Origin: an uncultured bacterium
Lineage (GTDB): Bacteria > Poribacteria > WGA-4E > WGA-3G
Reading direction: 5' to 3'
Assembly: GCA_964652195.1 (NCBI GenBank)
Contig: CAZZBB010000068.1
Span: forward strand, 102,398 to 166,397
Length of the DNA: 64,000 nucleotides
Shown here piece after piece: positions 6,481 to 63,867 of the stretch (position 1 is the first letter of the stretch; each line of letters begins with the position of its first letter). Position numbers and translations under genes: made by a program. Under the pieces are notes generated by a model, which was not told where the DNA came from, searched no databases, and saw nothing but the letters and a program-made list of their open reading frames with translations.

Positions 6481-9171
6481 CTATTCTGATTCATAACTAT
6501 TCACATGCTCATGAATCGGTTGTCGTTCAATATTTGCATGTGGATCGGCACGTCGCGCAATACCGGTTATATCGTCAACTGATTCATCTGCTTTGAATCG
6601 TTTATAAAGTTTACTGGATTTTGCAGCCATAGAGTGATTTTTAAGGGCCCGGTAACACCGCATCATATTGTAGTGTGCATCTAAATCTTCTGGATCAACC
6701 TTCAAACTCTTCTGAAAATAAGATATAGCGACCAGAAAATTCCTCTTTAGAAAATGCAATCGTCCTAATAGATTACTTACTCTCGTGTCTCGTGGAAATT
6801 GCTCTATAGCTTGCTCAACATGTTGTATTGCTAAATCGTAATTGCCATAAGATTCCTGTATGAGTCCATAAAAATAATGAACCTTTGCCCGATTCGGATC
6901 TGTCGGTGAAAGTGATTTCAGTAATTCTAAGGCTTGATTTAACACTGTTTCTGCTCCAGACATATCACCTTCTTTTATACGACATCTGGCAACATTAACC
7001 CATCCATCAAGATAACTCGGTTCAATTTCAGTCACTTTAAGAAAAACAGATTCCGCTTTTCTTAAATCTCCTTGTAGAAACAAACCAATTCCGTAATCAT
7101 TCCAACGTTCTCGTAAATTGCCTGTATTTAAGAGATGATTCTGTGTTGATTCTGTAATTTGTGAATTGTTCTTATCGGATTGTACATGTAGTTGGGTCTT
7201 TGCTTCAGCCATCACCACAATGGGTAGGTTTGGAATAGTCTTGATTTTTCCTGCAACATCAGTTGTATCCCCAGTCCAAATCCATTTCCCATTGTCATAA
7301 CCCTTATCGACCTTAAAATCCGTGTCCTCTGGATCGCGGACACCAGCATAAGCCCACTGTGTATGCCACCAGTTAAATTTTCGGTAATTAAGTTTTGCTT
7401 CTACACTAAGAGTATTTCCACTGTCTGATGGAATTTCTAATCGATAACGGACAGTATCGGCAGCCCCGGGAGGGATAGTATTTGAATATAACACTTTTCG
7501 CATTGCCCAAACATTCCGTTTGTTGATTAAGTTAGCATGTTCATCAAGCATATAACTTCGGTAAAAATGTGCACTTGGATCAACAGGACCATTTCCATCT
7601 GGTTCAGAAATCCTGCCATTCCAGAAAATAATCTTCCCGTTTTCATCGGTAATCTTCAATTCAAGCCAAATGTCAAAAGCATCAATTGTTCCAGTTGGAA
7701 AATGGTGTCCTACCCCTCTTGTACGAACTACTACCTCAATCAAAGTACTTTCGTTCCTGAAAATTGTTGAGCCATTGTCAGGTATTGGAGATCCATCGGC
7801 AAATATATCAAGTGTAATTACATCATTTTGTAGAAAATCGGTGACCGTTTTTAGTTGTTCGTCGTGTTTATTTACGTATGGAAGGGCTGTATTTGCAGCA
7901 GGAAATCTGTGACTGTGTACCTTACCTTTAATGTTTCCTGCATCCTTTGAATCTACCAAAGGCATATGGCAATCTACACATTTCTTTGCTTTTTCTGGAT
8001 AGTAGAATGATAGAGCACCTTGAAGTGAGACACCACTTTTCTGCCATTGATCATAGTCATTGAAACCTCGTATCCATCTGTAATTATTGACTGGATAATC
8101 AAGATGAACCTTATGACATGTAGAGCAAAATTCAGCAGTATTCTCTCGATGAAACGGCTTAATGAAGCTTTTTTTATGTGGTTCTGGATCAAGTCTAATT
8201 AAGTAGTTATGCATACTACGGATCAAACGATTATTGCTTGATGCGAGATTATGAAGTGGTGGATATTTAATTACATATCCACTATTTCCCATTGTATCTT
8301 TAACACGATCAATTGAATGACAGGCTGTACAAGCCAATCCAGCTTGAGCTGCAGGAGTATGTAAATTCTCACGAATAGGTTTATCCATTACACCGTTGAG
8401 TAGAATGGCAGGATCGTGACAACCACCACACCATTTTGATGGTTCTATCCCATTCACTTCCTGCATATAAATTATAGATTTACGATACCACTGGTTGTTA
8501 AAGGATGAAAAATGGTGTGCGGATTCGTTCCACTGTTTGTATATATCTGGATGACATTTACTTGAGCCACATGTTTCAGAATTTAGAAAAAAGTCTGTGT
8601 GTATAAGATTACCACTATCTGTCTCTACAGATGCTGGGAAGAAATGTCCTGTTGTACCTCCTCCTTCATCATACATACTACTTGGAGGAAATGCTGGATT
8701 TTCGACAAAATATGTTCTATTTGGGAAGAAATGCTGCGATAATTTAGCACCTATCGGAAAGAAAAGCACACCTACCAACACACTGATAAATATTTTTTGA
8801 AACTTCCCAGTAATATCATTAGTGTTCTTCAGTAGGTGTAGACTAAATAGAAGACTACCTATTGTAATGCTAATAATATGAGCTATTAGAAGCCAACGAT
8901 ATGGTGTTGATGCCCCTACTACCATCAAATAACCACCACTAACAGCACCTATTGTAAGGACAACTACACCTACTCTTCCAAAAACCGACATTGTTCTAAT
9001 ATTTTTAACTAAATAATAGCAGAAGAGTATTATAAGAAGACTTCCAAGTCCAATATGGATGAGTACATTTAGAATATAGAAGAGGGTTGGTTCACCAAAA
9101 CTAAATAGGTATGAACTATTTAGTAATAGTAAAAGAAAAGCATAAAGAGGTAATCTACGAATGTGTGTCAT
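6481..9171 (-). CDS. Membrane-anchored multihaem c-type cytochrome with C-terminal TPR domain
   Basis: 896 aa with 4 N-terminal TM helices. Contains CxxCH motifs CGGCH, CTACH, CSTCH and CVDCH, plus a possible CX4CH (CGSSKCH). The C-terminal ~200 aa are TPR-like repeats. Confidence 0.7.
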   Translation of the reverse strand: MTHIRRLPLYAFLLLLLNSSYLFSFGEPTLFYILNVLIHIGLGSLLIILFCYYLVKNIRTMSVFGRVGVVVLTIGAVSGGYLMVVGASTPYRWLLIAHIISITIGSLLFSLHLLKNTNDITGKFQKIFISVLVGVLFFPIGAKLSQHFFPNRTYFVENPAFPPSSMYDEGGGTTGHFFPASVETDSGNLIHTDFFLNSETCGSSKCHPDIYKQWNESAHHFSSFNNQWYRKSIIYMQEVNGIEPSKWCGGCHDPAILLNGVMDKPIRENLHTPAAQAGLACTACHSIDRVKDTMGNSGYVIKYPPLHNLASSNNRLIRSMHNYLIRLDPEPHKKSFIKPFHRENTAEFCSTCHKVHLDYPVNNYRWIRGFNDYDQWQKSGVSLQGALSFYYPEKAKKCVDCHMPLVDSKDAGNIKGKVHSHRFPAANTALPYVNKHDEQLKTVTDFLQNDVITLDIFADGSPIPDNGSTIFRNESTLIEVVVRTRGVGHHFPTGTIDAFDIWLELKITDENGKIIFWNGRISEPDGNGPVDPSAHFYRSYMLDEHANLINKRNVWAMRKVLYSNTIPPGAADTVRYRLEIPSDSGNTLSVEAKLNYRKFNWWHTQWAYAGVRDPEDTDFKVDKGYDNGKWIWTGDTTDVAGKIKTIPNLPIVVMAEAKTQLHVQSDKNNSQITESTQNHLLNTGNLRERWNDYGIGLFLQGDLRKAESVFLKVTEIEPSYLDGWVNVARCRIKEGDMSGAETVLNQALELLKSLSPTDPNRAKVHYFYGLIQESYGNYDLAIQHVEQAIEQFPRDTRVSNLLGRLHFLKRNFLVAISYFQKSLKVDPEDLDAHYNMMRCYRALKNHSMAAKSSKLYKRFKADESVDDITGIARRADPHANIERQPIHEHVNSYESE

Positions 9172-11409: not shown

Positions 11410-12225
11410 TTACCAAGCAGCTTTAAGTGTACCCCATGTCGTTGATGTTTTTCCATTTGGTTCAACTGGGGTAGCTACGTCATCTTGCATTGAAATGAAA
11501 CTGATCATTTCAATTAAAACTTGACCGCGTGGCAAGTCGCCTCTATTTGGTTCTTGCATGCAGATTCCAACACGACCACTGCTATCATTCAACTTAATGA
11601 TACCTGGATCGAAGAAGTCAGCACCGTTATCACCGAATTTCACTTCAACACTCCATGGGTCAACAATCTGATTAGCCTTAAATGGACGTTCAGATGTAAA
11701 ATTCACCAACGCTGGTGTATATTTCTTTCCATCATCAGTAGGTGTAATAGCAGTACCACCACCCCACATATCAGCATTGATATTAATGATGGTCTTCAAA
11801 CCACTATCACCATTGCCACCATCTGCAGAAACATAGAATGCATAGTCAGCACAATTAAGGATGATATTTCCACCGTAGAGGAAACGTTCTGCAATTGAAT
11901 CATCAACCTGTGAATTCCCGGGTGTATATAGTGTTGTAGGGAACCAGCCAAAAACAATGATGATGTCTGCCTTACCATCATCAATTCTATCTTCTGCCCA
12001 AGGACCAATTTCTGCATCGGTTTTATAGACAACATCACCAACAGAAGACACTTCGTTTTTCAAATTGTCAAATACAATAGCACGCTGAATGTCAGCATTA
12101 TCTTTTGAAATCCATCCTGCGGCTTCACTAAAGATAGCAACATCACCAAGTCCTGCCCAACTGGAAGTAGTAGCGACGAAAACAAAAAGGATGGAAAACG
12201 CAAATATCAATTTTCTCATATTCAT
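11410..12225 (-). CDS. Secreted hypothetical protein (paralog A of a tandem pair); C-terminal 'TTWGTLKAAW' motif
   Basis: Signal peptide 'MRKLIFAFSILFVFVATTSSWA'. About 55% identity to the adjacent paralog over ~200 aa. The ORF-track N-terminal extension is probably spurious. Confidence 0.5.
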   Translation of the reverse strand: MNMRKLIFAFSILFVFVATTSSWAGLGDVAIFSEAAGWISKDNADIQRAIVFDNLKNEVSSVGDVVYKTDAEIGPWAEDRIDDGKADIIIVFGWFPTTLYTPGNSQVDDSIAERFLYGGNIILNCADYAFYVSADGGNGDSGLKTIININADMWGGGTAITPTDDGKKYTPALVNFTSERPFKANQIVDPWSVEVKFGDNGADFFDPGIIKLNDSSGRVGICMQEPNRGDLPRGQVLIEMISFISMQDDVATPVEPNGKTSTTWGTLKAAW

Positions 12226-12309
12226 TAAGTCTCCTTTGAAAGGAAATTCGAGTATTATAATACGAGAATATATTGTATCATCATGATGATTCATATATTC
12301 TATTTCCAA

Positions 12310-13128
12310 TTAAAAATCAGATTTTAAATGTCCCCATGTGGTTGTAGCTTTCTGTTGCGGATCAACAGCTTGAGCACCAAGTACTTCAAAAAGGAAATTA
12401 TCTATCATCTCTGCTAATACCTTACCTCGTGGGAGTGCATCATTACCAGGTGCTTGGTAAAGGATTCCTATGCGGCCATCGGTTTCGGTATCGTGAACAA
12501 TTGCAGGATCGAGAAAGCCTGATCCATTGTCACCAAAAGCCACTTCAACTTCCCAAGGATCAACAATCTGGGCAGTCTTGAAGGGGCGCGCTGTAGTGAA
12601 GGCAGCGAGAGTTGGTGTATATTTTTCACCATCGGCTGTTGGTTTAATAGCGGTATTGTCTCCCCACATGTCAGCATTTATATCCATCATATTTTTCAAG
12701 CCATTCTCACCGTTGGTCCCAGCACCTTCTACCACATAAAAAATATAATCTGCAGTATTGAGGAAGACATTTCCGCCTTCAAGAAAATTTTCTGCAATAG
12801 AGCCATCAGGCTTAGCATTACCTGGTGGGTAAAGTGCTGCTGGGAAGTCGCCAAAAGTGACGATAATATCAGCTAAACCGTTATCAGTATGTTTTTCTGC
12901 CCAATCTCCTATCTCTTGGTCATTTAAGTTAACAACCTTTGAAGGTTTCTTTAGCAGGTCAGCTAATTCTTTACCTTCTGCAACTGCGGCAGCAAGCCCC
13001 ATCCAGCCAGCTCGTTGGGTATAAATTGCTACTTCCCCAAGTGGTAACGCTATACTTGGCACTGGAGTAGTTAATAGAGTAAGAGAATACCCTATGATGA
13101 TAGCCATAATAAATATCATTTTTTTCAT
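12310..13128 (-). CDS. Secreted hypothetical protein (paralog B); C-terminal 'TTTWGHLKSDF' motif
   Basis: Signal peptide 'MKKMIFIMAIIIGYSLTLLTTPVPSIA'. Paralogous to 11410..12225. Confidence 0.5.
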   Translation of the reverse strand: MKKMIFIMAIIIGYSLTLLTTPVPSIALPLGEVAIYTQRAGWMGLAAAVAEGKELADLLKKPSKVVNLNDQEIGDWAEKHTDNGLADIIVTFGDFPAALYPPGNAKPDGSIAENFLEGGNVFLNTADYIFYVVEGAGTNGENGLKNMMDINADMWGDNTAIKPTADGEKYTPTLAAFTTARPFKTAQIVDPWEVEVAFGDNGSGFLDPAIVHDTETDGRIGILYQAPGNDALPRGKVLAEMIDNFLFEVLGAQAVDPQQKATTTWGHLKSDF

Positions 13129-13946: not shown

Positions 13947-14795
13947 TTAATAAGATTTTGCACAACGAAATCCAACAGAACTACTATGGTCACTACATTG
14001 TGCGGGGTAGATATAGAATACTGTGGTACGGGTATCACCGTGACCATTTGTCCATGATCCTCCACGAATCGAGTAGACTATTCCATTTGTAATGTTGTTT
14101 TTTTCATTTGCAAGATCTATCAATTTATTATTATTTATAGTTGTTATTACCCATTCCCAAACATTACCTGCCATATCATGTATTCCAAATGGACTCACGC
14201 CCTTAGGATAACTACCGATAGAAGCAGTCTGTAATGCATACCCATCCAATTTTCCATCCATGTTACCATTATCATCAAAGTTTCCAAAAGACGTATTGTA
14301 CTCATTTCCCCATGGATACAGATGACCATCTATCCCTCTTGCGGCTTTTTCCCATTCTATATCGGTTGGTAATCTCTTACCCGCCCAATTTGCATAGGAC
14401 TCAGCATCATCCCAGTTAACACCTACAACAGGTTGATTCTGTGCATTTAGATTTGGATTCTCCCAAAACTTTGGTTTACGGTGTCCTGTATCTAAGAGGA
14501 ATTCCATGTACTGACCATTGGTGACTTCATACTTATCAATATAGAATGATTTAACGAAAACAGTTTGTTGATCGACTTCATTCCCGAAGGAATCCTCTGT
14601 TTTCTCATCAATTCCTATTGTAACTTCACCTGCTGGAATGAAGACCATTTCCTCTGTGTTTATGATTGAATCTTCATTGAACAAATTAGTCTCAGTGAAT
14701 GAGTCTGGAGAATCTTCACTGTTACAACCAATAAAGACTATATACAATATAAAGATAGAAATAAAATAGATGTAACTAAAAATTAAAAATCTCAT
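13947..14795 (-). CDS. Formylglycine-generating enzyme (FGE/SUMF1) family protein, secreted or lipoprotein
   Basis: 282 aa with an N-terminal signal/TM segment. The C-terminal 'RGGSW...C......VGFRCA' with two Cys is typical of the FGE-sulfatase domain. Confidence 0.75.
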   Translation of the reverse strand: MRFLIFSYIYFISIFILYIVFIGCNSEDSPDSFTETNLFNEDSIINTEEMVFIPAGEVTIGIDEKTEDSFGNEVDQQTVFVKSFYIDKYEVTNGQYMEFLLDTGHRKPKFWENPNLNAQNQPVVGVNWDDAESYANWAGKRLPTDIEWEKAARGIDGHLYPWGNEYNTSFGNFDDNGNMDGKLDGYALQTASIGSYPKGVSPFGIHDMAGNVWEWVITTINNNKLIDLANEKNNITNGIVYSIRGGSWTNGHGDTRTTVFYIYPAQCSDHSSSVGFRCAKSY

Positions 14796-24586: not shown

Positions 24587-25228
24587 TCATTCTTTATCAC
24601 GTTCTCGAATTGAGATATTAATAATTTTATCATCTTTTACAAGATTATCTAATACATCAAGTCCTTTAACAACTTTCCCAAGCGTCGTAAAGTCATCATC
24701 TAATATAATAGGCGATTTACAGATAAAGAATTCATCTGCATCTGAGACGGATTCCCCTTCTACTTTCGCCATCAATATGACACCCTTAACGAGTTGATGA
24801 TCCCCTTTTTCTATGGGTAGAGTGTCATCCACAAAAGCTGAACCAGCCTGAACGATTAGTTCTTCTACCCGATGAAATTTCTCGTTCTTATAATAATTTA
24901 GATTTGCATGTTTGATAAATGCCTTTGCTGTGATTGGTGCATCAGATGCAAAGAATTCAAACTCAATATTTCCTTTTTCCGTTTCTATCACAGCAATTGC
25001 ATTCGCTGGGTCAATTGCAGGTTTAGCTTGAGGCGTGGGTTTCTCAACCTGTGTTTCTGGTTTGGATACTTCTTGTGAAGTATCGGATTGTTGAGTTGTC
25101 TCACTTGTATCAGTAGTTGAAGATGATTGTTTATCTTGTTGTGTACATCCGGAAATACCAATAAGAAATACACATAGTATGGACCAAAAGATGTAATTAT
25201 ATCCATTAATTCTCTGCTGCCTTAACAT
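24587..25228 (-). CDS. Cyclophilin-type peptidyl-prolyl isomerase, lipoprotein-like with a Thr/Ser/Gln-rich linker
   Basis: C-terminal cyclophilin-like domain (…IETEKGNIEFEFF…FHRV…). N-terminal signal plus Cys. Confidence 0.65.
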   Translation of the reverse strand: MLRQQRINGYNYIFWSILCVFLIGISGCTQQDKQSSSTTDTSETTQQSDTSQEVSKPETQVEKPTPQAKPAIDPANAIAVIETEKGNIEFEFFASDAPITAKAFIKHANLNYYKNEKFHRVEELIVQAGSAFVDDTLPIEKGDHQLVKGVILMAKVEGESVSDADEFFICKSPIILDDDFTTLGKVVKGLDVLDNLVKDDKIINISIRERDKE

Positions 25229-25769
25229 ATTTCGACTTAGCCTCCAAACGAATTGTGGTGATTCTGTCGCCTATTGCTAACATATCGACGACGTGCATCC
25301 CTTGAATTACACCACCAAAGGTAGTATATTGTCCATCAAGATGAGGCTGTGGTTGTAGACAGATGTAGAACTGACATCCAGAGGAGTTTGGCATGTTTGC
25401 TCGAGCCATAGCAACAGTTCCTCTTATGTGTTTCCGTTGATTTGGATTGGTATATTCATCAACAATTTTCCAACCCGGGTCACCAGTTCCATCTCCTTTC
25501 GGACACCCTCCCTGAATAATATTTAATCCTGGTTGGTTGACAATTCGATGGAATGTTAATCCATCATAGAATTTCATACTGATTAGTTTTTTGAAGTTTT
25601 CAACAGCCACAGGTGCGGATTCGTCATAGAACTCAATTACTACGGTGCCTCTTTCAGTCTTAAGCACAGCAACTTTTTCTCTGGATTGATTAGCACCTGG
25701 AAGGAGAGAACATGCAGTAAAATAGTTTAGAATTAATAATAGTGGTAAGATGTAAACAAATTTCTTCAT
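25206..25769 (-). CDS. Cyclophilin-type peptidyl-prolyl cis-trans isomerase (PpiB-like), secreted
   Basis: 'FHRIV..F.IQGG', 'G.V.M.A......GSQFFI' cyclophilin signatures. Signal peptide present. Confidence 0.85.
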   Translation of the reverse strand: MKKFVYILPLLLILNYFTACSLLPGANQSREKVAVLKTERGTVVIEFYDESAPVAVENFKKLISMKFYDGLTFHRIVNQPGLNIIQGGCPKGDGTGDPGWKIVDEYTNPNQRKHIRGTVAMARANMPNSSGCQFYICLQPQPHLDGQYTTFGGVIQGMHVVDMLAIGDRITTIRLEAKSKYVKAAEN

Positions 25770-25778
25770 GACTTAGCC

Positions 25779-26561
25779 TTATTTACCTTTAAGACGTGCC
25801 CAAGTAGTAGCGAGTTTTCCTTGGGATTCTACGTTTAGAAGTAATGGATTGTCCATATCAGTTAGCAACTCATCCTCAGTTAGAGCATAGTTATACATCT
25901 TTATTTCATCAAGTGCGCCGGTGACATACCTTTCCTTTCCACCCCTTGCACCGATATATAATGCTCCATTGTTTGGAACAAGTTCCCCTTTACAATCTAA
26001 TTGTTTATTCAAGACACCATCAATGTAAAGTTTTATGGTATTCCCGTCCCAAGTACCTGCCATAAAATGCCAATTTCCATCAAGTATACTTCCACCAACA
26101 TTTTCATCATCACAATTATCGGGTAAATCAAAGAATTGTAGAATAGAACCACCACGATAGAAAGCAGCGAGGGTATATAAACCTGCCCCCCATGCGGGAC
26201 CTTTTTCAACCCCTGTTTGTACATCAGCTCCGGCTCTTAATTTTGCCCAGAATTCAATTGTAATTCCATCAACTATATCAATACTGGAATGGTCAGGAAC
26301 TTCGCCATGTGTTTTTCCGTCGAAATCAATTGCTTTTCCAAATTTACCTTCAACAAGTTTGGGGGATCCCGTGAAAGTTACATCATTCCGATATTCAGAT
26401 GAATCTTTGGATACCTTTCCATTAAGCTCATCAAATGACAAGTGTAAAACAAGATCTTCTGCATTTGTTATTTCAGAGAGGATTAGGAATGAAAACATTA
26501 AGATAGACAAACCGATTATGTATCCAACACGTTTTCTTGTGTTATGTATATAGTAGTACAT
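25779..26561 (-). CDS. Secreted LamG/concanavalin-A-like lectin domain protein; C-terminal 'KLATTWARLKGK' motif
   Basis: Signal peptide. Laminin-G_3-like pattern (…ITIEFWAKL…LYIDGVL…YIGARG…DEIKMYNYALTEDEL). Confidence 0.55.
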   Translation of the reverse strand: MYYYIHNTRKRVGYIIGLSILMFSFLILSEITNAEDLVLHLSFDELNGKVSKDSSEYRNDVTFTGSPKLVEGKFGKAIDFDGKTHGEVPDHSSIDIVDGITIEFWAKLRAGADVQTGVEKGPAWGAGLYTLAAFYRGGSILQFFDLPDNCDDENVGGSILDGNWHFMAGTWDGNTIKLYIDGVLNKQLDCKGELVPNNGALYIGARGGKERYVTGALDEIKMYNYALTEDELLTDMDNPLLLNVESQGKLATTWARLKGK

Positions 26562-45122: not shown

Positions 45123-48100
45123 CTATCTTCTTATCACCATTTTCCGAGTTGCTTTAAACCCTCCTGCAGTAATAGTATAAAAATACATACCACTTGCGAC
45201 CTTTTCATTACTTGTATTTCTTCCATCCCAATGTAAAATGTGTCTACCTTGTGAATGAGTTCCATACTGTTGTAATGCGACAAGGTGTCCTTTCTCATTG
45301 TGGATTGATAGACTGAAATCAGTATCTGTTGCGAGAGTAATGGGAATCCATGTTTCTGGATTAAATGGATTTGGATAGTTTTGGAATAACTGATTGATGG
45401 AATCTTGAGATAAATCCGGTTGGGGAAATCCATCTTCTCCACTATGGTCTTCAACACCTAAATTACTTAAACTTGCATCAATTTGATATGTGTTAAGTTG
45501 GTATAAATCAGCGATATAAACAGCATTATCAGTAACCAGCATATCTGAAGGAGCATGTAATTGTGTATAACGCATTTCTCGTAACATTGTCTCGGTATGA
45601 ATTACCTGCAGACTTTCAACATCAAGTAAGTATAGGAAATCCTCGTTAGCTTTTGCTACTATAGGTATTGTCGTATCTTCGTAAGTTGAGACTATTTTAA
45701 GATTATTTTGTTCACTGTTGTCAAGCTTTATCACGCCGATGTGTGTATCAAGTATATAGATAAAATTATCTGAAATTGAAACATTAGTTGCAGCTCCTTC
45801 AGTTTGGAAATGTAGTATTGGACGAGGGAGAGATGGGTTTGAGATATCTAATATATGAATCCCACCCTCAAGTGCTGCAATATACGCATGTGTAGTATTA
45901 TGATCTATCTTATACACACTACCATTCAGATTACGGTTTGAGACAATTCTACTCAATTCAATACTACTAATGTCTACAACGACAAGAGAACCTGCACAGA
46001 GATATGCATAATTCTCTATCAAATCAATCGCTGAGACAGGGTGCTGAGTATTTATTTTTACAAGAGTATCACCTGAAATAATATCAATGATTTCCATTCC
46101 ATCTTCTAATCCAATAAAAGCCAAATCTTCTTTAATGGTTACACATAATGTTCCTAATTCTTCTTCTATTGAGCGGACATCCTGTATTATACTACCTGTA
46201 TATGGATCTGATAATTCTATTACCTTCAGACCTCCTTTTCCATGTGCGACAGCAATTCTTGATTCATTATTATCTACATCAAGATCATAAGCTGTACCGC
46301 CAGCATCATATTGAGTTAACCATTTGGGAGAATAGGGATTAGTTATTTCGAAAGTCTGTATCCCACCTAATCCATCCGCTATATATGCATATTCTTCAGA
46401 TGTTTCTGTTTTCCATAATGCAAGACTATTTGCTGATCCATAAGTAGGATGCGATGCGACTAATTCCGGTTTGAAGGGATTACTCATATTAACAATGTGA
46501 AGACCAGCATGTATATCAGTTAGATATAGAAAGTTTTGCATACGTTGTATACTTGAAGCCAGACCTGGTGTATTTAATACAGTAATTGGTTTGGGTTCAG
46601 CAGGAACATCTACATTTATTATATGAAGATTGTTAGAAATAAGTTGTATATTGTCATCTCCAAAATCAAAATCAAGTACAGCAAGTGGATATGTTCCTTT
46701 TACATTGAATCCACCAAGAGGATCCGGTGTAAGAATATATACGCCAACTGCATTATCACTTAAGTATACATCCTCACCCTTTGTTGATACACTCAATGGA
46801 ACTCCAGTAGGTATATATGTTCGCTTTGGATTCGGGTTCTCCAGGTTATAAATGTCCTGTAATCTATAAACCGACAACCCCCGTATTGTGTCAAGTGCAT
46901 ACATATTTCCATTTGCTATATATATATAACTTGCATCTTGAAAACCTTTGATCGTCTTTAGAATTCTGGGTAATTCAGGTTTACTTACATCAATCAAATG
47001 TACTCCTGAATTACCATCAGCTACGAATACATTTTCTCCATCAATTGCTAAACTCCCTGCTGAGCCAGGTGTTTGCATTTCACTTATCTTGATCAAATCC
47101 TTACCTAAGCTGAATACTTCTAATCCCCATTCACTTGTAGCAAATGCAAATTCATTAAATACTATTATATCTTGATAATTACTCGAAAGATGAATCTGCG
47201 TTCTCGGTTTTAATTGCATCGAGGTATTAGAGGGGATTAATCGGGACGAAGTGTTCAGAAGGTTAATTTGTTGTGTCTTACTTCTGGGTGGGTGTTTTAC
47301 TGAATCTGGAATTGAGATTCTAAACCTGTAATTGATATTCGGTGTTGGCAAATTATTCTGAACACTTAGGTTGATAGGGTTTTTATCTATTGTAGGATTT
47401 ACTGTGCTGGTAAAAGTCTGTTTGTAAGGACTGGTAATAACTACGAGTATTTGACCTTCTGGTTTTAATTTATCTAAAGTAAGTGTATATGTTGAGGCAT
47501 TATTTTCTTCTGGAGTAGGATGTATTGGTAAAACAACTGGTTTTTTACTATTCGGCAATAAGTAGACAATCTTAGCATATAAATCAACTTGTGGATGCCC
47601 TTGTAATGAAATCTCCATTTTTTCGGGAAGATTTCTGTATAAGAAATATTGAAAACCCCAACTATCTACAGTTCTATTATGCTTTGATGGATAGGATGTA
47701 ATCAGTGGAATATTAGCATCAATTTTTCTATTCTTAAGATTCCTGTAACTATAATCTGTACCTAAACTGGGATCATTAATCCAATTAGTAATTCCCCAAT
47801 TTAGAAAAACATCAATTAGTTCTTTACCCTTTAATGATCTTCCTATCCCATCCAAACCAAGTTTATCCTCAGCTGAAATTCTCCTTATAATAGACTTATT
47901 CCCATGGTTTTCATATAGGTATAGGAGATACATAAAAGCAGCACCATAATATATATCTGATGTATTTGCAGTTGTAAGTGATAGATTCGGATTGGAGAGA
48001 TAGTTATCAACAAATAGCGTATGAACAGTGCCATAAACCCCCCATTCTGTAAATGAAGCTAACCCCTCTTCTAACCAACGTTGATCGTTTGTTCCACCGT

Positions 48101-48713
48101 TCTGATACCAACTAACTAAATGTGCAAATTCATGTGCTAAACTACTATAGAATGTATGTCTGGCTCTTTCTTTGAATTGATAAATATCCATATAGAGAAT
48201 ATCGCGTTTATTACTTGTTGGATAGGTCGGTTGTAGATCTGTAGGAGAGAAATATCCGCCATAATCATGACCCGATTTATTCATCCCTACATCGTGTAAT
48301 AGGATTGTTATTTTATTATCCCGATCAAATCCAGGTTTGAATTCTGATCCAATCCAATCTTGAACACCAGAGTAGATTCTATTGTCGAAAGTTTCTGTGA
48401 TATTCTTTGCATCATTTTCTGTGAGTAATTCTTGGACAGTTGTATCAATATATATATAACAATTTACACCAATATTAACACAGATAGCATTTACAGATGT
48501 TTCCGGAATATGGATATAAAACCTTTCTACTTGTCCCAATTTAACAGGTGCTGCTGGTGCCGCAGGCACGTTTATTATCCTGTTTATACTGCTCTCTTGA
48601 ATGTTCGCATATCTTTCACATAGTAAAGGTGTGCCACACTTCCAAGGTTCAGCATTAACTTTTCCTAAAAAAACAAGAAACTGAATAAGTAAAAAAAAAT
48701 TTAAAATTCGCAT
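45123..48713 (-). CDS. Secreted HExxH zinc-metalloprotease-like protein with LVIVD-repeat beta-propeller and T9SS C-terminal sorting domain
   Basis: 1196 aa with signal peptide. Contains 'HEFAHLV…EEG', more than 10 LVIVD-like repeats and the C-terminal 'NYPNPFNPETWIPI…KMVIRR'. Confidence 0.7.
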   Translation of the reverse strand: MRILNFFLLIQFLVFLGKVNAEPWKCGTPLLCERYANIQESSINRIINVPAAPAAPVKLGQVERFYIHIPETSVNAICVNIGVNCYIYIDTTVQELLTENDAKNITETFDNRIYSGVQDWIGSEFKPGFDRDNKITILLHDVGMNKSGHDYGGYFSPTDLQPTYPTSNKRDILYMDIYQFKERARHTFYSSLAHEFAHLVSWYQNGGTNDQRWLEEGLASFTEWGVYGTVHTLFVDNYLSNPNLSLTTANTSDIYYGAAFMYLLYLYENHGNKSIIRRISAEDKLGLDGIGRSLKGKELIDVFLNWGITNWINDPSLGTDYSYRNLKNRKIDANIPLITSYPSKHNRTVDSWGFQYFLYRNLPEKMEISLQGHPQVDLYAKIVYLLPNSKKPVVLPIHPTPEENNASTYTLTLDKLKPEGQILVVITSPYKQTFTSTVNPTIDKNPINLSVQNNLPTPNINYRFRISIPDSVKHPPRSKTQQINLLNTSSRLIPSNTSMQLKPRTQIHLSSNYQDIIVFNEFAFATSEWGLEVFSLGKDLIKISEMQTPGSAGSLAIDGENVFVADGNSGVHLIDVSKPELPRILKTIKGFQDASYIYIANGNMYALDTIRGLSVYRLQDIYNLENPNPKRTYIPTGVPLSVSTKGEDVYLSDNAVGVYILTPDPLGGFNVKGTYPLAVLDFDFGDDNIQLISNNLHIINVDVPAEPKPITVLNTPGLASSIQRMQNFLYLTDIHAGLHIVNMSNPFKPELVASHPTYGSANSLALWKTETSEEYAYIADGLGGIQTFEITNPYSPKWLTQYDAGGTAYDLDVDNNESRIAVAHGKGGLKVIELSDPYTGSIIQDVRSIEEELGTLCVTIKEDLAFIGLEDGMEIIDIISGDTLVKINTQHPVSAIDLIENYAYLCAGSLVVVDISSIELSRIVSNRNLNGSVYKIDHNTTHAYIAALEGGIHILDISNPSLPRPILHFQTEGAATNVSISDNFIYILDTHIGVIKLDNSEQNNLKIVSTYEDTTIPIVAKANEDFLYLLDVESLQVIHTETMLREMRYTQLHAPSDMLVTDNAVYIADLYQLNTYQIDASLSNLGVEDHSGEDGFPQPDLSQDSINQLFQNYPNPFNPETWIPITLATDTDFSLSIHNEKGHLVALQQYGTHSQGRHILHWDGRNTSNEKVASGMYFYTITAGGFKATRKMVIRR

Positions 48714-51105: not shown

Positions 51106-51846
51106 CTAATTGTCTTTAATACTACCCCATGAGGTGGCAAGTTTTGTATATGGTTTGACTGGAAAAGGTTTACCAGGACCACCATTGGGAATGTTCTTAC
51201 CAGAAATTTCAACATTATCATACCGCACACGAGAATTACTAATAGCAAGGCCAACTTGACCTTTATCAATAGGATCTGCATCCTCGGCAATAATTGTCAC
51301 CAGAGGATTATCCCCTTCATCTTCAGCATTCTTTATGCTAAACTCAAGTATAGCTTCACCTTCTTCAATCGGATTTAATTGTACAGATGCAGTGAGTTCA
51401 TACCAAACATCTTTGTCAGCAAAGAAATTCCGTCTTGTCGATCCACCATTTGCTACCCATTTATCAATGACAGCAAACCCTCTTAAATAATCTACATAAA
51501 ACACATAACGTCCGCCTTCCTCACCTCTGTCATGAAGAGTGAGTCCAAAATATGGAGGATCGTTTTTTTCATCTATCAGTTTAACTATACACCTGACAGA
51601 ATAATACTTCCAGTTGCTTTCACCCGTCATCCAAAGACTCCAAAATCCAGGTTGAAAAATCTCACCAACTGCTTCGTCATCATTAATCCACCATTTCTCT
51701 ACTTGTCGGTTAAGATTGAAGATTTCCCATTCTTTAGTATCATTGTCCTCAAAATCATCACGCCAAGTCCCAGCAAATGATTGGAAAACAACACACATCA
51801 ATAAATTAAGTAGAATAAAATAATAAAGTTTTCTTTGATTCGTCAT
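51106..51846 (-). CDS. Secreted DUF1080/concanavalin-like domain protein; C-terminal 'KLATSWGSIKDN' motif
   Basis: Signal peptide. '…GQVGLAISNSRVRYDNVEI' resembles the DUF1080 C-terminal strands. Confidence 0.45.
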   Translation of the reverse strand: MTNQRKLYYFILLNLLMCVVFQSFAGTWRDDFEDNDTKEWEIFNLNRQVEKWWINDDEAVGEIFQPGFWSLWMTGESNWKYYSVRCIVKLIDEKNDPPYFGLTLHDRGEEGGRYVFYVDYLRGFAVIDKWVANGGSTRRNFFADKDVWYELTASVQLNPIEEGEAILEFSIKNAEDEGDNPLVTIIAEDADPIDKGQVGLAISNSRVRYDNVEISGKNIPNGGPGKPFPVKPYTKLATSWGSIKDN

Positions 51847-60704: not shown

Positions 60705-63700
60705 TTACTTCCTTATCAACATCTTCCGCGTGGCAGTGAAATCACCCGCACTGAATTTAACAAAATAGACACCTGTCGCCACCTTCTCACCAAGATTATT
60801 TTTACCATCCCAATGGGCTGCACGGATACGGCTTTGATAGATACCGACAAGTTTATGTCCTAAGTCTAATGTTCGTATCAACTTACCATCTGATGCATAG
60901 ATTGAAATGCTGACATTGGATGGGGTTGCAAGTTGATAGGGTATCCACGTCTCTGGATTGAATGGGTTTGGATAGTTCGTAAACAAACGCGTCTTTTCTG
61001 GTGTTACGAATTCGTTATCAACTGTACCATCTCTATCTACATCATACTTTGAGGATGGTGCCAGCAAAAAGGGGGCTACTGTGCCGGAGGGCACTGAAAC
61101 ATCACCCGGTGAAACCAAATTTGTTACAACAGTCTGGATATAAGTCCCTCTAATGTTACTCCCCAGGATTTTCCCTCGACTGTTCGTCCAATATATTTTG
61201 TTTTCAACCGTGTCAACGGAAATTCCGTAAGGCACTGCTAATACTGATATTAGTTCTTCAACATGACTGCCATCGAGATTAGCACTATGGATTTTACCTG
61301 CTGAATCACTGGTCTTTTCTGTCCAAAATACTTTACCAGTACCCACAGCGATTCCGCCCAGTGTTCCATAACCACCAGCAATCTGTCTAACACCCGAACC
61401 ATCAACGTTTGCAGATTGCACAGTGTTATCAGCTGTTATCCAGTATATTTTACCGGCACCAACCGCAATGTCTTTCGGATCGTTTAGATCTCTAATGAGG
61501 TTCGGCTTATATCCTGAACCATCAAGATTGATTGACTGCACTTTACCCCAGCCGTTTGTCAAGTAAATCTTATTATTAGCAGTGTCGACAGTTATACCCG
61601 CAGGTGTTGCTGTAAGATCACGAATCAACTGAATATTAGTACCGTTCAGGGCAGAACGACGAAGTCTACCGTTATTATTCCCTATATCCTCAACCCAGTA
61701 GAGACGCGTATCCGTAACAACAAGACTCACAACATTGTCCACACCAGGAGCAATGTCTTCTACACTGCTACCAACAAGACGATGCAGCGTGCCATTATCC
61801 GTGTTTATCCAATACATATAAGCTTGCTGTGAAAACGGTTCATTGTTTTTAAGATAGATTGTGACATTCGGATTCTTTTTCAAAAGTTCAAAGAGCGGTT
61901 TTCTGTTCTTAATTGGGTTTTCCACAAGGGATAAATTTACAAGATTTATTAAGTCTGTGAGTGGACGAACATCGCTAATTCGATTGTAGTTGAGAAGTAA
62001 TTGACGTAAATTCATTAATTTTTTGAGGGGTAGAACATCCGTAATCTAATTGGATGAGAGATTTAACCTTCGTAACTCTGTTAATCCCGTGAGGGGTATA
62101 ATGTCCACAATTTGATTTCCACTAAGACCTAAGAACGTAATTCCAGTCAAATTTGCCAAAGGTGTAATGTCTCTAATCTGATTTCCACTAAGAGTTAATG
62201 ACTTATTTCCAGTCAAATTTGCCAAAGGTGTAATGTCTCTAATCTGATTTCGATCAAGACCTAAGGATACCAGGTTCGGTAATTCTGTCAACAGAACGAG
62301 TCCCTCGTCCTTAATTTGATTGTAAGAGAGTTCTAAGCTTATTAAATTCAGCAATCCCGTAAGTGGTGTAATGTTCACAATTTGATTCCTGTGGAGGTAC
62401 AGGGTATCCAATCGCGTCAATCCTGATAGCGGTCTTATATCACTGATTTTGTTTCCACTAAGTATTAGCGAGCTCAATTGTGTTAATCCTGTGAGCGGTG
62501 TAAGGTCACGAATATCCCCGAACTTATAGTTGAAATCTTGATCAATGTGGATCTGACCAAGGTGTAAACGCTCAAGATTAGTTGCGTGTTGTAGACCGGT
62601 GAGGTCCCTTACAAACGCATCGGGCTTGCTTGATCCATAGTTATCCAGGCTCCCTAAACCCAACATATCCAGTTTCGTGATGTGACTTGAAGGGTCTAAG
62701 CCAAGGTTTTCCCTGATCATTGCTGCTAAATTCGCATCGGGTATTAACACAGGTTCGGAGTCCGGGAACAAAGCGTCAGTATCGAGGGAAAATATTTGAA
62801 ATGTAAAGTTGCCATACGCATCAATAACAGAAAGAACGACATATTCACTTGCGGGTGCTAATTCGGTCGTGATGAATTCAATTGTTTCACTGTTTCTGCT
62901 TAAGGATTGACAATCAATCAATGTGGTTTTGTTCGGGTCAAAACCCGGATTTCCTCGCCAAGAAAATGAATTCGTGAGCAGCTGCGCTTGATAGAGTTCC
63001 TGGGAATGCGTTATCTTAAACTGGAGTCGAACAGTATTGGGTGTAGATACAAAAGAGGGTGGGAGCATCTCAATCGTTGGGACTTCGCGAAAGGCATTAT
63101 GGGTCGTGTTAAAGTAGCGATGGGCATCCAGCCATTGGGCAGCGCAGTACGACAATTGGTCCGTGAACTCCTCAGGTCCGTAACCCATTATGTAGCGGTC
63201 ATCACGGAAATCGTGGGGCAATCCAAAGGCGTGTCCAAGTTCATGGGCAATGACATTAAAGGCTCTAAGACGATGTACTTTGGGTGCTATGTGAAAATCT
63301 AAGAGCGTAATGTTTGCAGTTCCTCCAAACGGGGAACCGCTGCCATTACCACCGACTTGGCCTGGAACTACACCCCCACCATTATCGTCGCCAACAATGA
63401 AAATAAGGTGAACAAAATGCTCGGACAAGTCAAAATGTTGGTTAATTTCTTGATGGGCTTTGCCAATTTTATCCCTAGAATATTCTATAGCACGGAATTT
63501 CCCTTTAACAAAGTGTCTCACCCTCTTTCCAAGCGTATTGGTTTCAAGCCTAAAAGTTTTTCTGCCAAACCCGTGGCGTTCCATCTCATCGGCATAAAAT
63601 TGCTGGACATCCTCTACCAAAGCGTCTAGCCTTGCATCCATATCCCGTGAGGGGTGACGGTCACTGGGGTGAAAGTAGATCTGCCGCACGACATATTCAG

Positions 63701-63788
63701 GCGATTCGTCTTGGGCAAAACTATTTGGCACAAACATGAGTGTTACAAGAGCAAATAGTGTGAATGTAAGACATAGTGTTGTTTTCAT
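60705..63788 (-). pseudogene. Secreted metzincin (HELGHAFGLPHD) - leucine-rich repeat - YWTD beta-propeller - T9SS C-terminal-domain protein. Interrupted by a single in-frame TAG at 62046-62048 (ORF-track pieces 62046..63851 and 60705..62015).
   Basis: Both ORFs are in the same frame. The LRR periodicity (L..L..L.L..N.I.DI.PL) continues across the TAG: '…RRLNLSSN*ITDVLPLKKLMNLRQLLLNYNRISDVRPL…'. C-terminal 'NYPNPFNPETWIPY…KMLIRK'. Confidence 0.5.
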
Positions 63789-63867
63789 GAGTTCGTTCTC
63801 CATATTGTGTAAGAGTGGTCTCTGTGTTTGTGGGAATAACACAGAAACCACTAGAATTTGGAAAATC

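Follow-up and report, generated by a model that had tools for sequence, protein, structure and literature searches.

A conserved C-terminal tail on unrelated exported proteins of Poribacteria, shared with the flank of type IX-like C-terminal domains, is very probably a hitherto undescribed tag for sorting or anchoring in the envelope

Exported proteins of many unrelated families in Candidatus Poribacteria end in the same short conserved peptide, and this tail is very probably a tag, hitherto undescribed, for sorting to or anchoring in the cell envelope. Four copies lie in a 64,000-nucleotide stretch of an uncultured poribacterium (GenBank assembly GCA_964652195.1, contig CAZZBB010000068.1, forward-strand positions 102,398 to 166,397), which we refer to as the window. 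A first-pass annotation of the window, made from the letters alone, had described four open reading frames (ORFs) that encode a signal peptide and share a C-terminal motif 2-3 residues before the stop codon, and had proposed a sorting or processing tag; all four ORFs and their C-termini are as it described them. The same motif also stands directly in front of C-terminal domains (CTDs) of the kind that type IX secretion systems (T9SS) use, which suggests a place for it in envelope sorting. New machineries of the envelope, among them sortases, exosortases, rhombosortase and the T9SS, have repeatedly come to light through C-terminal sorting tags, and Poribacteria are a major uncultured phylum of sponge symbionts.

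Results

Four exported proteins of the window share a C-terminal tail

A six-frame translation of the window contains the motif K..T[TS]W[GA].[LI]K exactly four times, all on the minus strand and all 2-3 residues before the stop codon of an ORF of 246-272 residues. Six-frame residue frequencies predict 0.00045 matches by chance, and 200 shuffles of the window produced none. The four proteins and their tails are as follows.

11410..12225, minus strand: p1, tail-bearing secreted protein of 271 residues, paralog of p2; family without a Pfam model
11413..11472, minus strand: C-terminal tail of p1, TPVEPNGKTSTTWGTLKAAW
12310..13128, minus strand: p2, tail-bearing secreted protein of 272 residues with an alpha/beta fold (AlphaFold, homologues)
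12313..12372, minus strand: C-terminal tail of p2, QAVDPQQKATTTWGHLKSDF
25779..26561, minus strand: LamG (Laminin_G_3) tail-bearing secreted protein of 260 residues (PF13385, E=3e-23)
25782..25838, minus strand: C-terminal tail of the LamG protein, LNVESQGKLATTWARLKGK
51106..51846, minus strand: DUF1080 / 3-keto-disaccharide-hydrolase-like tail-bearing secreted protein of 246 residues (weak PF06439 match)
51109..51165, minus strand: C-terminal tail of the DUF1080-like protein, FPVKPYTKLATSWGSIKDN

The p1 protein has a signal-peptide-like N-terminus (MNMRKLIFAFSILFVFVATTSSWA) and a ribosome-binding site (AAAGGAGA) upstream. The extreme ends of the four proteins read …NGKTSTTWGTLKAAW (p1), …QQKATTTWGHLKSDF (p2), …QGKLATTWARLKGK (LamG) and …YTKLATSWGSIKDN (DUF1080-like). 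Once the tails are aligned, the conserved block reaches further upstream than the motif used to find it, as V-[EDK]-[PS]-x-x-K-x-x-T-[TS]-W-[GA]-x-[LI]-K.

The family assignments of the first-pass annotation largely hold. The p1 and p2 genes are indeed tandem paralogs, and their 49% identity marks them as old duplicates; a Pfam scan of the pair gave no match, and an AlphaFold model of the p2 family (mean predicted local distance difference test score, pLDDT, 87.8) has an alpha/beta fold resembling class-I glutamine amidotransferases and ThuA. The LamG-like protein is a clear PF13385 member. The DUF1080 label is sound for relatives of the fourth protein, but the window protein itself matches PF06439 only below the cutoff (E=0.016). 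Conservation of the motif at the nucleotide level (ACnACATGGGG…TTAAA) had also been noted. The four 3' ends do resemble each other in DNA, but that similarity ceases at the stop codon and conserved tail residues are encoded by different codons (GTT, GTA or GTC for Val; ACG, ACC, ACT or TCA), so selection acts on the peptide and not on a DNA repeat.

The tail is a C-terminal feature found throughout one phylum

The tail has been retained over long evolutionary distances. The tandem-pair family comprises 157 homologues, and every one that bears a source name comes from Candidatus Poribacteria; among the best 120 of the 157 p2 homologues, a tail that fits V[ED]P..K…W[GAS].[LIV]K… is present in 119, even where identity is as low as 44%. 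In the DUF1080-like family the tail lies at most 9 residues from the end in 117 of the 120 homologues listed, and two more have it with a longer extension.

For a genome scan we used a degenerate DNA pattern that codes for V-x-P-x-x-K-x-x-x-T-W-[GA]-x-h-K and sets no condition on stop codons; it covered 185,579 species, each represented by one genome. The scan returned at least 119 stretches; among the matches listed, 112 are titled Poribacteria, 4 are unnamed metagenome-assembled genomes (MAGs) and 3 belong to other taxa (Marivivens, Psychromonas and Siphonobacter). We rejected these last three as chance matches, as they are out of frame or non-terminal. All of the genuine loci among the matches listed, at least 116, are therefore from Candidatus Poribacteria or unnamed MAGs, and the Poribacteria MAGs with the tail were recovered from sponges, corals, seawater, sediments and hot springs. 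An in-frame stop codon follows the last Lys by 1-8 codons, most often 3, in 145 of 149 cases among the matches listed; since the pattern was blind to stop codons, this is an unbiased demonstration of a C-terminal feature. The motif is thus strictly C-terminal and not scattered at random positions. Nor are the window copies recent duplicates of one 3' segment, since the motif is kept in orthologues down to 44-45% identity and occurs in more than 100 other genomes.

A 20-position profile of the tail, run against 1.84 billion representative proteins, gave 192 matches at E<=0.001, and 138 of the best 149 of these 192 are terminal. The shortness of the motif limits the E-values that can be reached, so the count of 192 is a floor and not a census. 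To judge from the genome-scan matches listed, the tail appears to be restricted to a single phylum, the Poribacteria. Within it the tail is dense: there are 4 in the 64-kb window and about 0.4 additional tails per fetched 8-kb block. Rough extrapolation to a genome of 5-6 Mb gives carriers on the order of a hundred or more, an estimate that tandem clustering inflates.

No model in Pfam or NCBIfam (June 2026) covers the tail, whether searched with full proteins or with ten isolated tails at E values up to 10. Full-text literature searches turned up no description of the motif, and nothing pertinent on sorting signals, the T9SS, dockerins or cohesins in Poribacteria.

Anatomy of the tail and the proteins that carry it

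A logo built from 164 distinct tails reads [LTF]-[AP]-V-[ED]-P-x-[GD]-K-L-[ATS]-T-T-W-[GA]-x-[LI]-K. A slightly broader consensus is [LTF]-[AP]-V-[ED]-P-x-[GD]-K-[LAV]-x-[TV]-T-W-[GA]-x-[LIV]-K. The tail is 17-20 residues long; its W and K are invariant and V, P, T and G nearly so. Conservation is also seen at positions that the search pattern left free (-12, -11, -9, -6, -4, -3, -2 and +3, numbered from the Trp at 0). Arg and Lys are over-represented among the 1-8 residues past the last Lys, but no particular residue is conserved at the very end (R in 50 of the 164 tails, K in 23, Y in 16, N in 14, Q in 14 and F in 11). In the AlphaFold model of p2, residues 251-272 have pLDDT values of 42-59 compared with about 95 for the domain, which places the tail outside the fold; these roughly 20 residues are all that follows the globular domain, as in the other tail proteins of the window. 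We ruled out an intramolecular role, as the tail does not pack on the domain in this model. The tail is thus predicted to be an intrinsically unstructured linear motif.

We extracted 165 carriers from the genome-scan loci listed, the four window proteins included; 158 of them are untruncated. Carriers are small, at 203-353 residues (n=165), and a simple heuristic based on hydrophobicity recognizes a signal-peptide-like N-terminus in 152 of the 158 that are untruncated; by eye, the remaining ones look the same. With the tail removed, the carriers fall into 32 BLAST sequence clusters. LamG proteins form by far the largest (75 members). Other Pfam domains in the set are PD40 propellers, CBM9, CBM4_9, NPCBM, F5/8 type C (discoidin) and BNR, as well as DUF4960, DUF3108-like and 3-keto-disaccharide hydrolase (DUF1080) domains; the p2 family is ThuA-like, and about half of the 32 clusters have no Pfam match at all. 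Judged by these domain matches, the carriers are overwhelmingly small, single-domain proteins, mostly of carbohydrate-binding type. Their median length is 268 residues, compared with 570 for proteins with a T9SS-type CTD sampled in the same DNA.

The same motif precedes T9SS-type C-terminal domains

The first-pass annotation had set the tail apart from the T9SS CTD. The tails match no CTD model, but the separation needs correcting: the same motif flanks CTDs on their N-terminal side, at fixed spacing, in 73 metagenomic proteins and one protein of Poribacteria, which ties the tail to that sorting region. The latter, an ASPIC/UnbV protein on locus L111, has the motif internally with a CTD directly after it; it reads …AVEPAGKLSTTWGKAKAAEVFQNYPNPFNPETW…, with the remainder of the CTD after it (…VVTAVEPAGKLSTTWGKAKAAEVFQNYPNPFNPETWIPYQL…RKMWLMK).

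We scanned metagenome contigs completely for K…TW[GA]..K followed at a short distance by NYPNPFNPETWI, and so recovered the other 73 motif-CTD junctions, on 71 loci (L121-L191; freshwater and groundwater contigs). The consensus of the flank in these proteins is [AS]-V-[ENT]-P-x-x-K-…-T-W-G-x-[VI]-K, three variable residues and L[YF]QNYPNPF. The search pattern did not include Val(-10) and Pro(-8), yet both are conserved in the flank, which identifies the CTD flank and the tail as the same motif. Its register is fixed: 6 residues (x-x-x-L-[YF]-Q) separate the last Lys from NYPNPF in 69 of the 73, and in most of the proteins 106 residues lie between Lys(-5) and the stop. The first position of Pfam's Por_Secre_tail model (PF18962) is the Tyr of NYPNPF, which puts the motif wholly outside the known CTD model. 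Tail-only proteins most often end 3 residues past the last Lys, K(+4), and the CTD-bearing flank continues with 3 residues and L[YF]Q. On this alignment, tail-only proteins stop where the core CTD would begin.

The two kinds of ending coexist. The 71 metagenome loci also encode 27 tail-only proteins, and one family of fusions between an extracytoplasmic function (ECF) sigma factor, a transmembrane segment and a propeller includes both tail-only and motif-CTD endings at 44-51% identity. In a homologue with the p1 domain (P0107, 476 residues), a natural module swap has put a dockerin, a linker and a T9SS-type CTD where the tail would be. A CTD hidden Markov model (HMM) found no CTD remnant downstream of 198 tail-only genes, so these genes are not recent truncations, frameshifts or read-through products. 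The cargo families of tail-only and motif-CTD proteins scarcely overlap.

An AlphaFold model of a motif-CTD segment, built from a shallow alignment that did not cover the motif, has a confident CTD core (pLDDT about 90), a beta-hairpin of modest confidence at the motif (60-67) and a poorly defined linker between the two (44). The core fold matches FlgD and the CTDs of PorU, PorZ and T9SS substrates.

Two proteins of the window have such a domain, and neither has the tail motif ahead of it.

45123..48713, minus strand: LVIVD-repeat protein of 1196 residues with a T9SS-type CTD (FlgD_ig / Por_Secre_tail; PF13860, 36.9 bits; PF18962, 24.3 bits, just under the cutoff)
60705..62015, minus strand: 436-residue protein with a T9SS-type CTD (PF13860, 30.6 bits; PF18962, 26.4 bits)

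The second of these starts with leucine-rich repeats (LRR), followed by LDL-receptor class B repeats and the CTD. It begins 30 nucleotides downstream of 62046-63851, on the same strand, and this upstream ORF encodes LRR repeats with a metallopeptidase-like region and again ends in LRR repeats. Together they may represent a single gene, interrupted by a stop codon or by an error in sequencing.

Three further observations concern the region ahead of the CTD and the proteins that bear it. Many CTDs of Poribacteria have a second, different conserved element ahead of them, …RGIxFLEQLLxxLxPxETxLLxNYPNPF (P0392, P0393, P0399, P0107; L067:6540-7046), which looks helical. A MAFFT alignment, since discarded, superimposed the tail on the opening strand of the CTD, PNPFNPETW, which shares three of its residues (P at -8, T at -1, W at 0) at equal spacing; duplication of this strand might have given rise to the pre-CTD motif, though the resemblance may be coincidental. 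The ECF fusions, finally, combine Sigma70_r2 and r4_2, a transmembrane segment and an NHL/WD40/Kelch beta-propeller in one polypeptide. Members were found on L170 (a 980-residue ORF), L140, L152, L122, L162 and L157, with tail-only forms at L140:12201-14066 and L181:11394-13238. A CTD on a sigma fusion anchored in the inner membrane suggests either that signalling is coupled to the sorting apparatus or that a "CTD" is not always a secretion signal.

Neighbouring genes and other features

We clustered 877 ORFs from 119 loci and the window in a search for genes that accompany the tail. Families that recur next to tail genes (PhyH, GFO_IDH_MocA, FGE-sulfatase, ASPIC/UnbV, TPR and ABC-2) are, we assume, generally abundant families and not partners. 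Genes for cohesin+dockerin proteins (430-990 residues; cluster 5, 1.7% of ORFs) stand beside tail genes on L006, L037, L038, L059, L118 and L120. About 6 such adjacencies were observed and about 5.6 were expected, which is the chance rate.

Some linkages are specific to single families. The p1/p2 (ThuA/GATase1-like) family adjoins FGE-sulfatase-like genes, both in the window (13947-14795, beside 11410-13128) and elsewhere (L024:1977-2876), and protein P0065 is a fusion of a lipoprotein signal, an FGE-sulfatase domain, a p2 domain and the tail. Adjacency and fusion hint at a shared pathway for the two families. Directly downstream of the LamG tail gene, on the same strand, are genes for two exported cyclophilin-type peptidyl-prolyl isomerases (24587-25228 and 25206-25769); their position beside a tail with a near-invariant Pro may be coincidence.

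The window also encodes an exported protein of 896 residues (6481-9171) with multihaem-cytochrome-like regions (Cytochrome_C554, MtrC/MtrF-like) and C-terminal TPR repeats. A 1.83-Mb contig (L192; ENA ERZ25084491, ctg366949) contains a close relative of the window; gene order is the same in both, and the DUF1080-like protein is 99% identical.

Discussion

A model for the tail

The proposal of a sorting or processing tag stands in so far as the tail is a conserved terminal tag on unrelated cargo with signal peptides; the analysis identified no processing enzyme, receptor or outer-membrane component to go with it. We put at roughly 0.5 the probability that the motif is a sorting, retention or attachment element that is read by another component and forms part of a T9SS-type sorting apparatus. 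The position and distribution of the tail, the diversity and signal peptides of its cargo, selection on the peptide, its lack of structure and its identity with the pre-CTD motif are direct results; we infer recognition by another component, the link to T9SS machinery, the position of cleavage and the final location of the cargo.

In Bacteroidota, the CTD is released at a cleavage-site motif located 6-30 residues to the N-terminal side of motif B, after which the newly formed C-terminus is glycosylated (PMC11969387); PMC4560394 presents the cut and the modification as a sortase-like mechanism. By analogy, the cleavage window on FlgD_ig-type CTDs would be the poorly defined linker that runs from the motif's last Lys to the NPETW strand, which would leave the motif on the passenger side of the cut. 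The reader would be located in the periplasm or at the outer membrane, as a component of a T9SS-type apparatus or of its attachment complex. On cargo with a CTD, removal of that domain would leave the motif attached to the passenger as its mature C-terminus; tail-only proteins would present the same C-terminus directly, with no CTD to remove. In both cases the binding modules would end up retained at, or attached to, the cell envelope. It is tempting to speculate that a PorU-like C25 peptidase cleaves or transfers after the invariant Lys as P1, with the 1-8 terminal residues, or the spacer and CTD, as the leaving group. Peptidase family C25, the gingipain family to which PorU is assigned, has Lys-specific enzymes among its members.

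Several points weigh against a role in a T9SS-type apparatus. No partner gene was enriched among the 877 neighbouring ORFs. T9SS machinery (sprA, porV, porU, gldKLMN) was not seen in Poribacteria, where the analysis covered loci of 8-20 kb, although no search was aimed at those genes, and to our knowledge the system has classically been described in Bacteroidota only. A peptide of 20 residues cannot replace the beta-sandwich CTD at the translocon, so that outer-membrane crossing by tail-only proteins is left unexplained. Tails and CTDs on ECF sigma fusions anchored in the inner membrane argue for a periplasmic location of at least some of these C-termini. A shallow alignment underlies the modelled structural relation of pre-motif to CTD, and only 1 of 8 sampled marine Poribacteria CTDs has the pre-motif.

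Alternative explanations

A bolder reading is a previously unrecognized, CTD-independent pathway of envelope sorting or attachment in Poribacteria and a freshwater/groundwater lineage, with a signal of about 20 residues that has neither a transmembrane helix nor a beta-sandwich, substrates on the order of a hundred or more per genome and a machinery of its own, which T9SS-type cargo would join after the CTD is cut off. We regard this as a tentative possibility. A further alternative is a stand-alone docking or anchoring peptide that works without the T9SS and binds one common envelope receptor, a tether in the manner of dockerins; the receptor could be an outer-membrane protein, a scaffold, a glycolipid or a peptidoglycan-associated factor, and CTD cargo would need the same tether after export. 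Such a peptide would suit an unstructured appendage of conserved amphipathic and cationic character (K, L, W, L/I and K, with R/K-rich extensions) on cargo of 203-353 residues made up mostly of non-catalytic binding domains. It would also suit the family member with a dockerin and CTD in the tail's place, and the tails that end the periplasmic part of membrane-anchored ECF fusions. Yet no receptor candidate emerged, cohesin+dockerin genes adjoin tail genes only at the chance rate, and a docking peptide has no need of a fixed-register junction with the CTD. We consider this explanation rather unlikely. It is less probable again that the tail is by itself a sufficient signal for export across the outer membrane, through a T9SS-type translocon or a wholly new route. 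The large phylum-wide set of carriers (by rough estimate on the order of 100 or more per genome), their signal peptides and the alternation of tail and CTD within single families are what one would expect of an export signal. Known T9SS recognition, by contrast, uses motifs B, D and E of the CTD's folded beta-sandwich (PMC11969387), the analysis found no outer-membrane component dedicated to the tail, and membrane-anchored ECF fusions with the tail could not be released across the outer membrane without prior cleavage. The idea of a "split CTD", in which the tail would complement CTDs that have no pre-motif, is weakened by organisms whose CTDs have the motif and which encode tail-only proteins as well.

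Explanations that deny the tail a sorting role fare worse. If the tail were a functionless relic, a linker left behind after loss of the CTD, tail-only proteins would be expected to end where the core CTD begins, as they do (mode 3, against 3 + L[YF]Q). A relic would hardly keep W and K invariant and V, P, T and G nearly so across 32 unrelated clusters and among orthologues at 44-45% identity; no CTD remnant lies downstream of the 198 tail-only genes, and the cargo families of the two classes barely overlap. The conservation data bring this explanation close to refuted, and we give it very little credence. Recognition by a protease that processes C-termini, or by a PDZ-domain protein, with the tail as a degron or as a ligand in quality control, is just as poorly favoured: the tail is terminal and unstructured, as such a tag should be, but readers of the PDZ/Tsp type use the last residues and the free carboxylate, and here the last 1-8 residues vary while the conserved block is internal. 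A degradation mark on several percent of genes would also be implausible. Least credible is an action of the 3' end at the level of nucleic acid or translation, as a repeat, a terminator-linked element or a ribosome-arrest peptide. The nucleotide similarity seen in the first-pass annotation is in its favour; against it are the synonymous codons, the end of similarity at the stop codon and the internal copies of the motif before CTDs, and a motif-to-stop distance of 1-8 codons is incompatible with an arrest peptide. Codon variation and the variable distance together refute both the DNA-level element and the arrest peptide.

Significance

The pattern is statistically unambiguous, phylum-wide and undescribed. 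A substantial part of the glycan-binding proteins that Poribacteria export bear the tag, which probably governs the display or retention of lectin-like proteins with a presumed action on polysaccharides of the host and the sea. The fixed position of the tag ahead of the CTD offers a testable handle on the junction between passenger and CTD in T9SS-like systems outside Bacteroidota, and a means to probe whether a conserved element that stays on the passenger serves attachment. As an annotation marker, a short profile HMM would unite many "hypothetical" proteins in one functional class.

Comparison with known systems

In its general properties the tail resembles the PEP-CTERM/exosortase, LPXTG/sortase and GlyGly-CTERM/rhombosortase systems, whose tags are likewise short, lineage-restricted and present on many paralogous signal-peptide proteins per genome, often with LamG-type or other binding domains, and are recognized by their conservation on cargo of unrelated families. 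It differs from them in build, as the first-pass annotation had noted for PEP-CTERM and LPXTG. Tags of the PEP-CTERM type consist of a motif, a transmembrane helix and a basic cluster, whereas the tail has no hydrophobic stretch or terminal basic cluster, only 1-8 residues following its motif; NCBIfam CTERM models match neither tails nor tail proteins. LPXTG signals likewise combine their motif with a transmembrane helix and a charged tail, and tail proteins have neither LPXTG nor the helix.

Dockerins have about 60-70 residues with duplicated Ca-binding (F-hand) segments. Like them, the tail is a C-terminal appendage that could tether modules to a scaffold, and Poribacteria do encode cohesin+dockerin proteins, but the tail has only about 20 residues. 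The dockerin model PF00404 does not match tails or tail proteins; it is detected in the neighbouring cohesin+dockerin proteins and is on record for P0107, so it does work on genomes of this kind. The beta-signal of outer-membrane proteins, PDZ ligands and the peroxisomal targeting signal PTS1 are also short and located at the extreme C-terminus. These depend on the last residues (an aromatic, or SKL), which in the tail vary; the terminal aromatic of the beta-signal is usually Phe, and Phe ends 11 of 164 tails. Targeting peptides of encapsulins and microcompartments act on cytoplasmic cargo without signal peptides, whereas tail carriers have them.

The type A CTD of the T9SS (PF18962 / TIGR04183) is likewise C-terminal and borne by Sec-exported cargo of many unrelated families. 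It is a beta-sandwich of about 70-100 residues with motifs B, D and E, all of which tail-only proteins lack; PF18962, PF13860 and PF13585 gave no match to the four window proteins or to ten isolated tails, and do match the genuine CTDs of the window. A conserved pre-CTD motif of this kind was found neither in our literature searches nor in PMC11969387. The N-terminal flank of the CTD, by contrast, is identical in sequence to the tail motif and corresponds to the region where, in Bacteroidota, the CTD is cleaved and the new C-terminus attached (PMC11969387, PMC4560394). On these sequence comparisons, the closest relative of the tail is this previously unmodelled flank of FlgD_ig-type T9SS CTDs.

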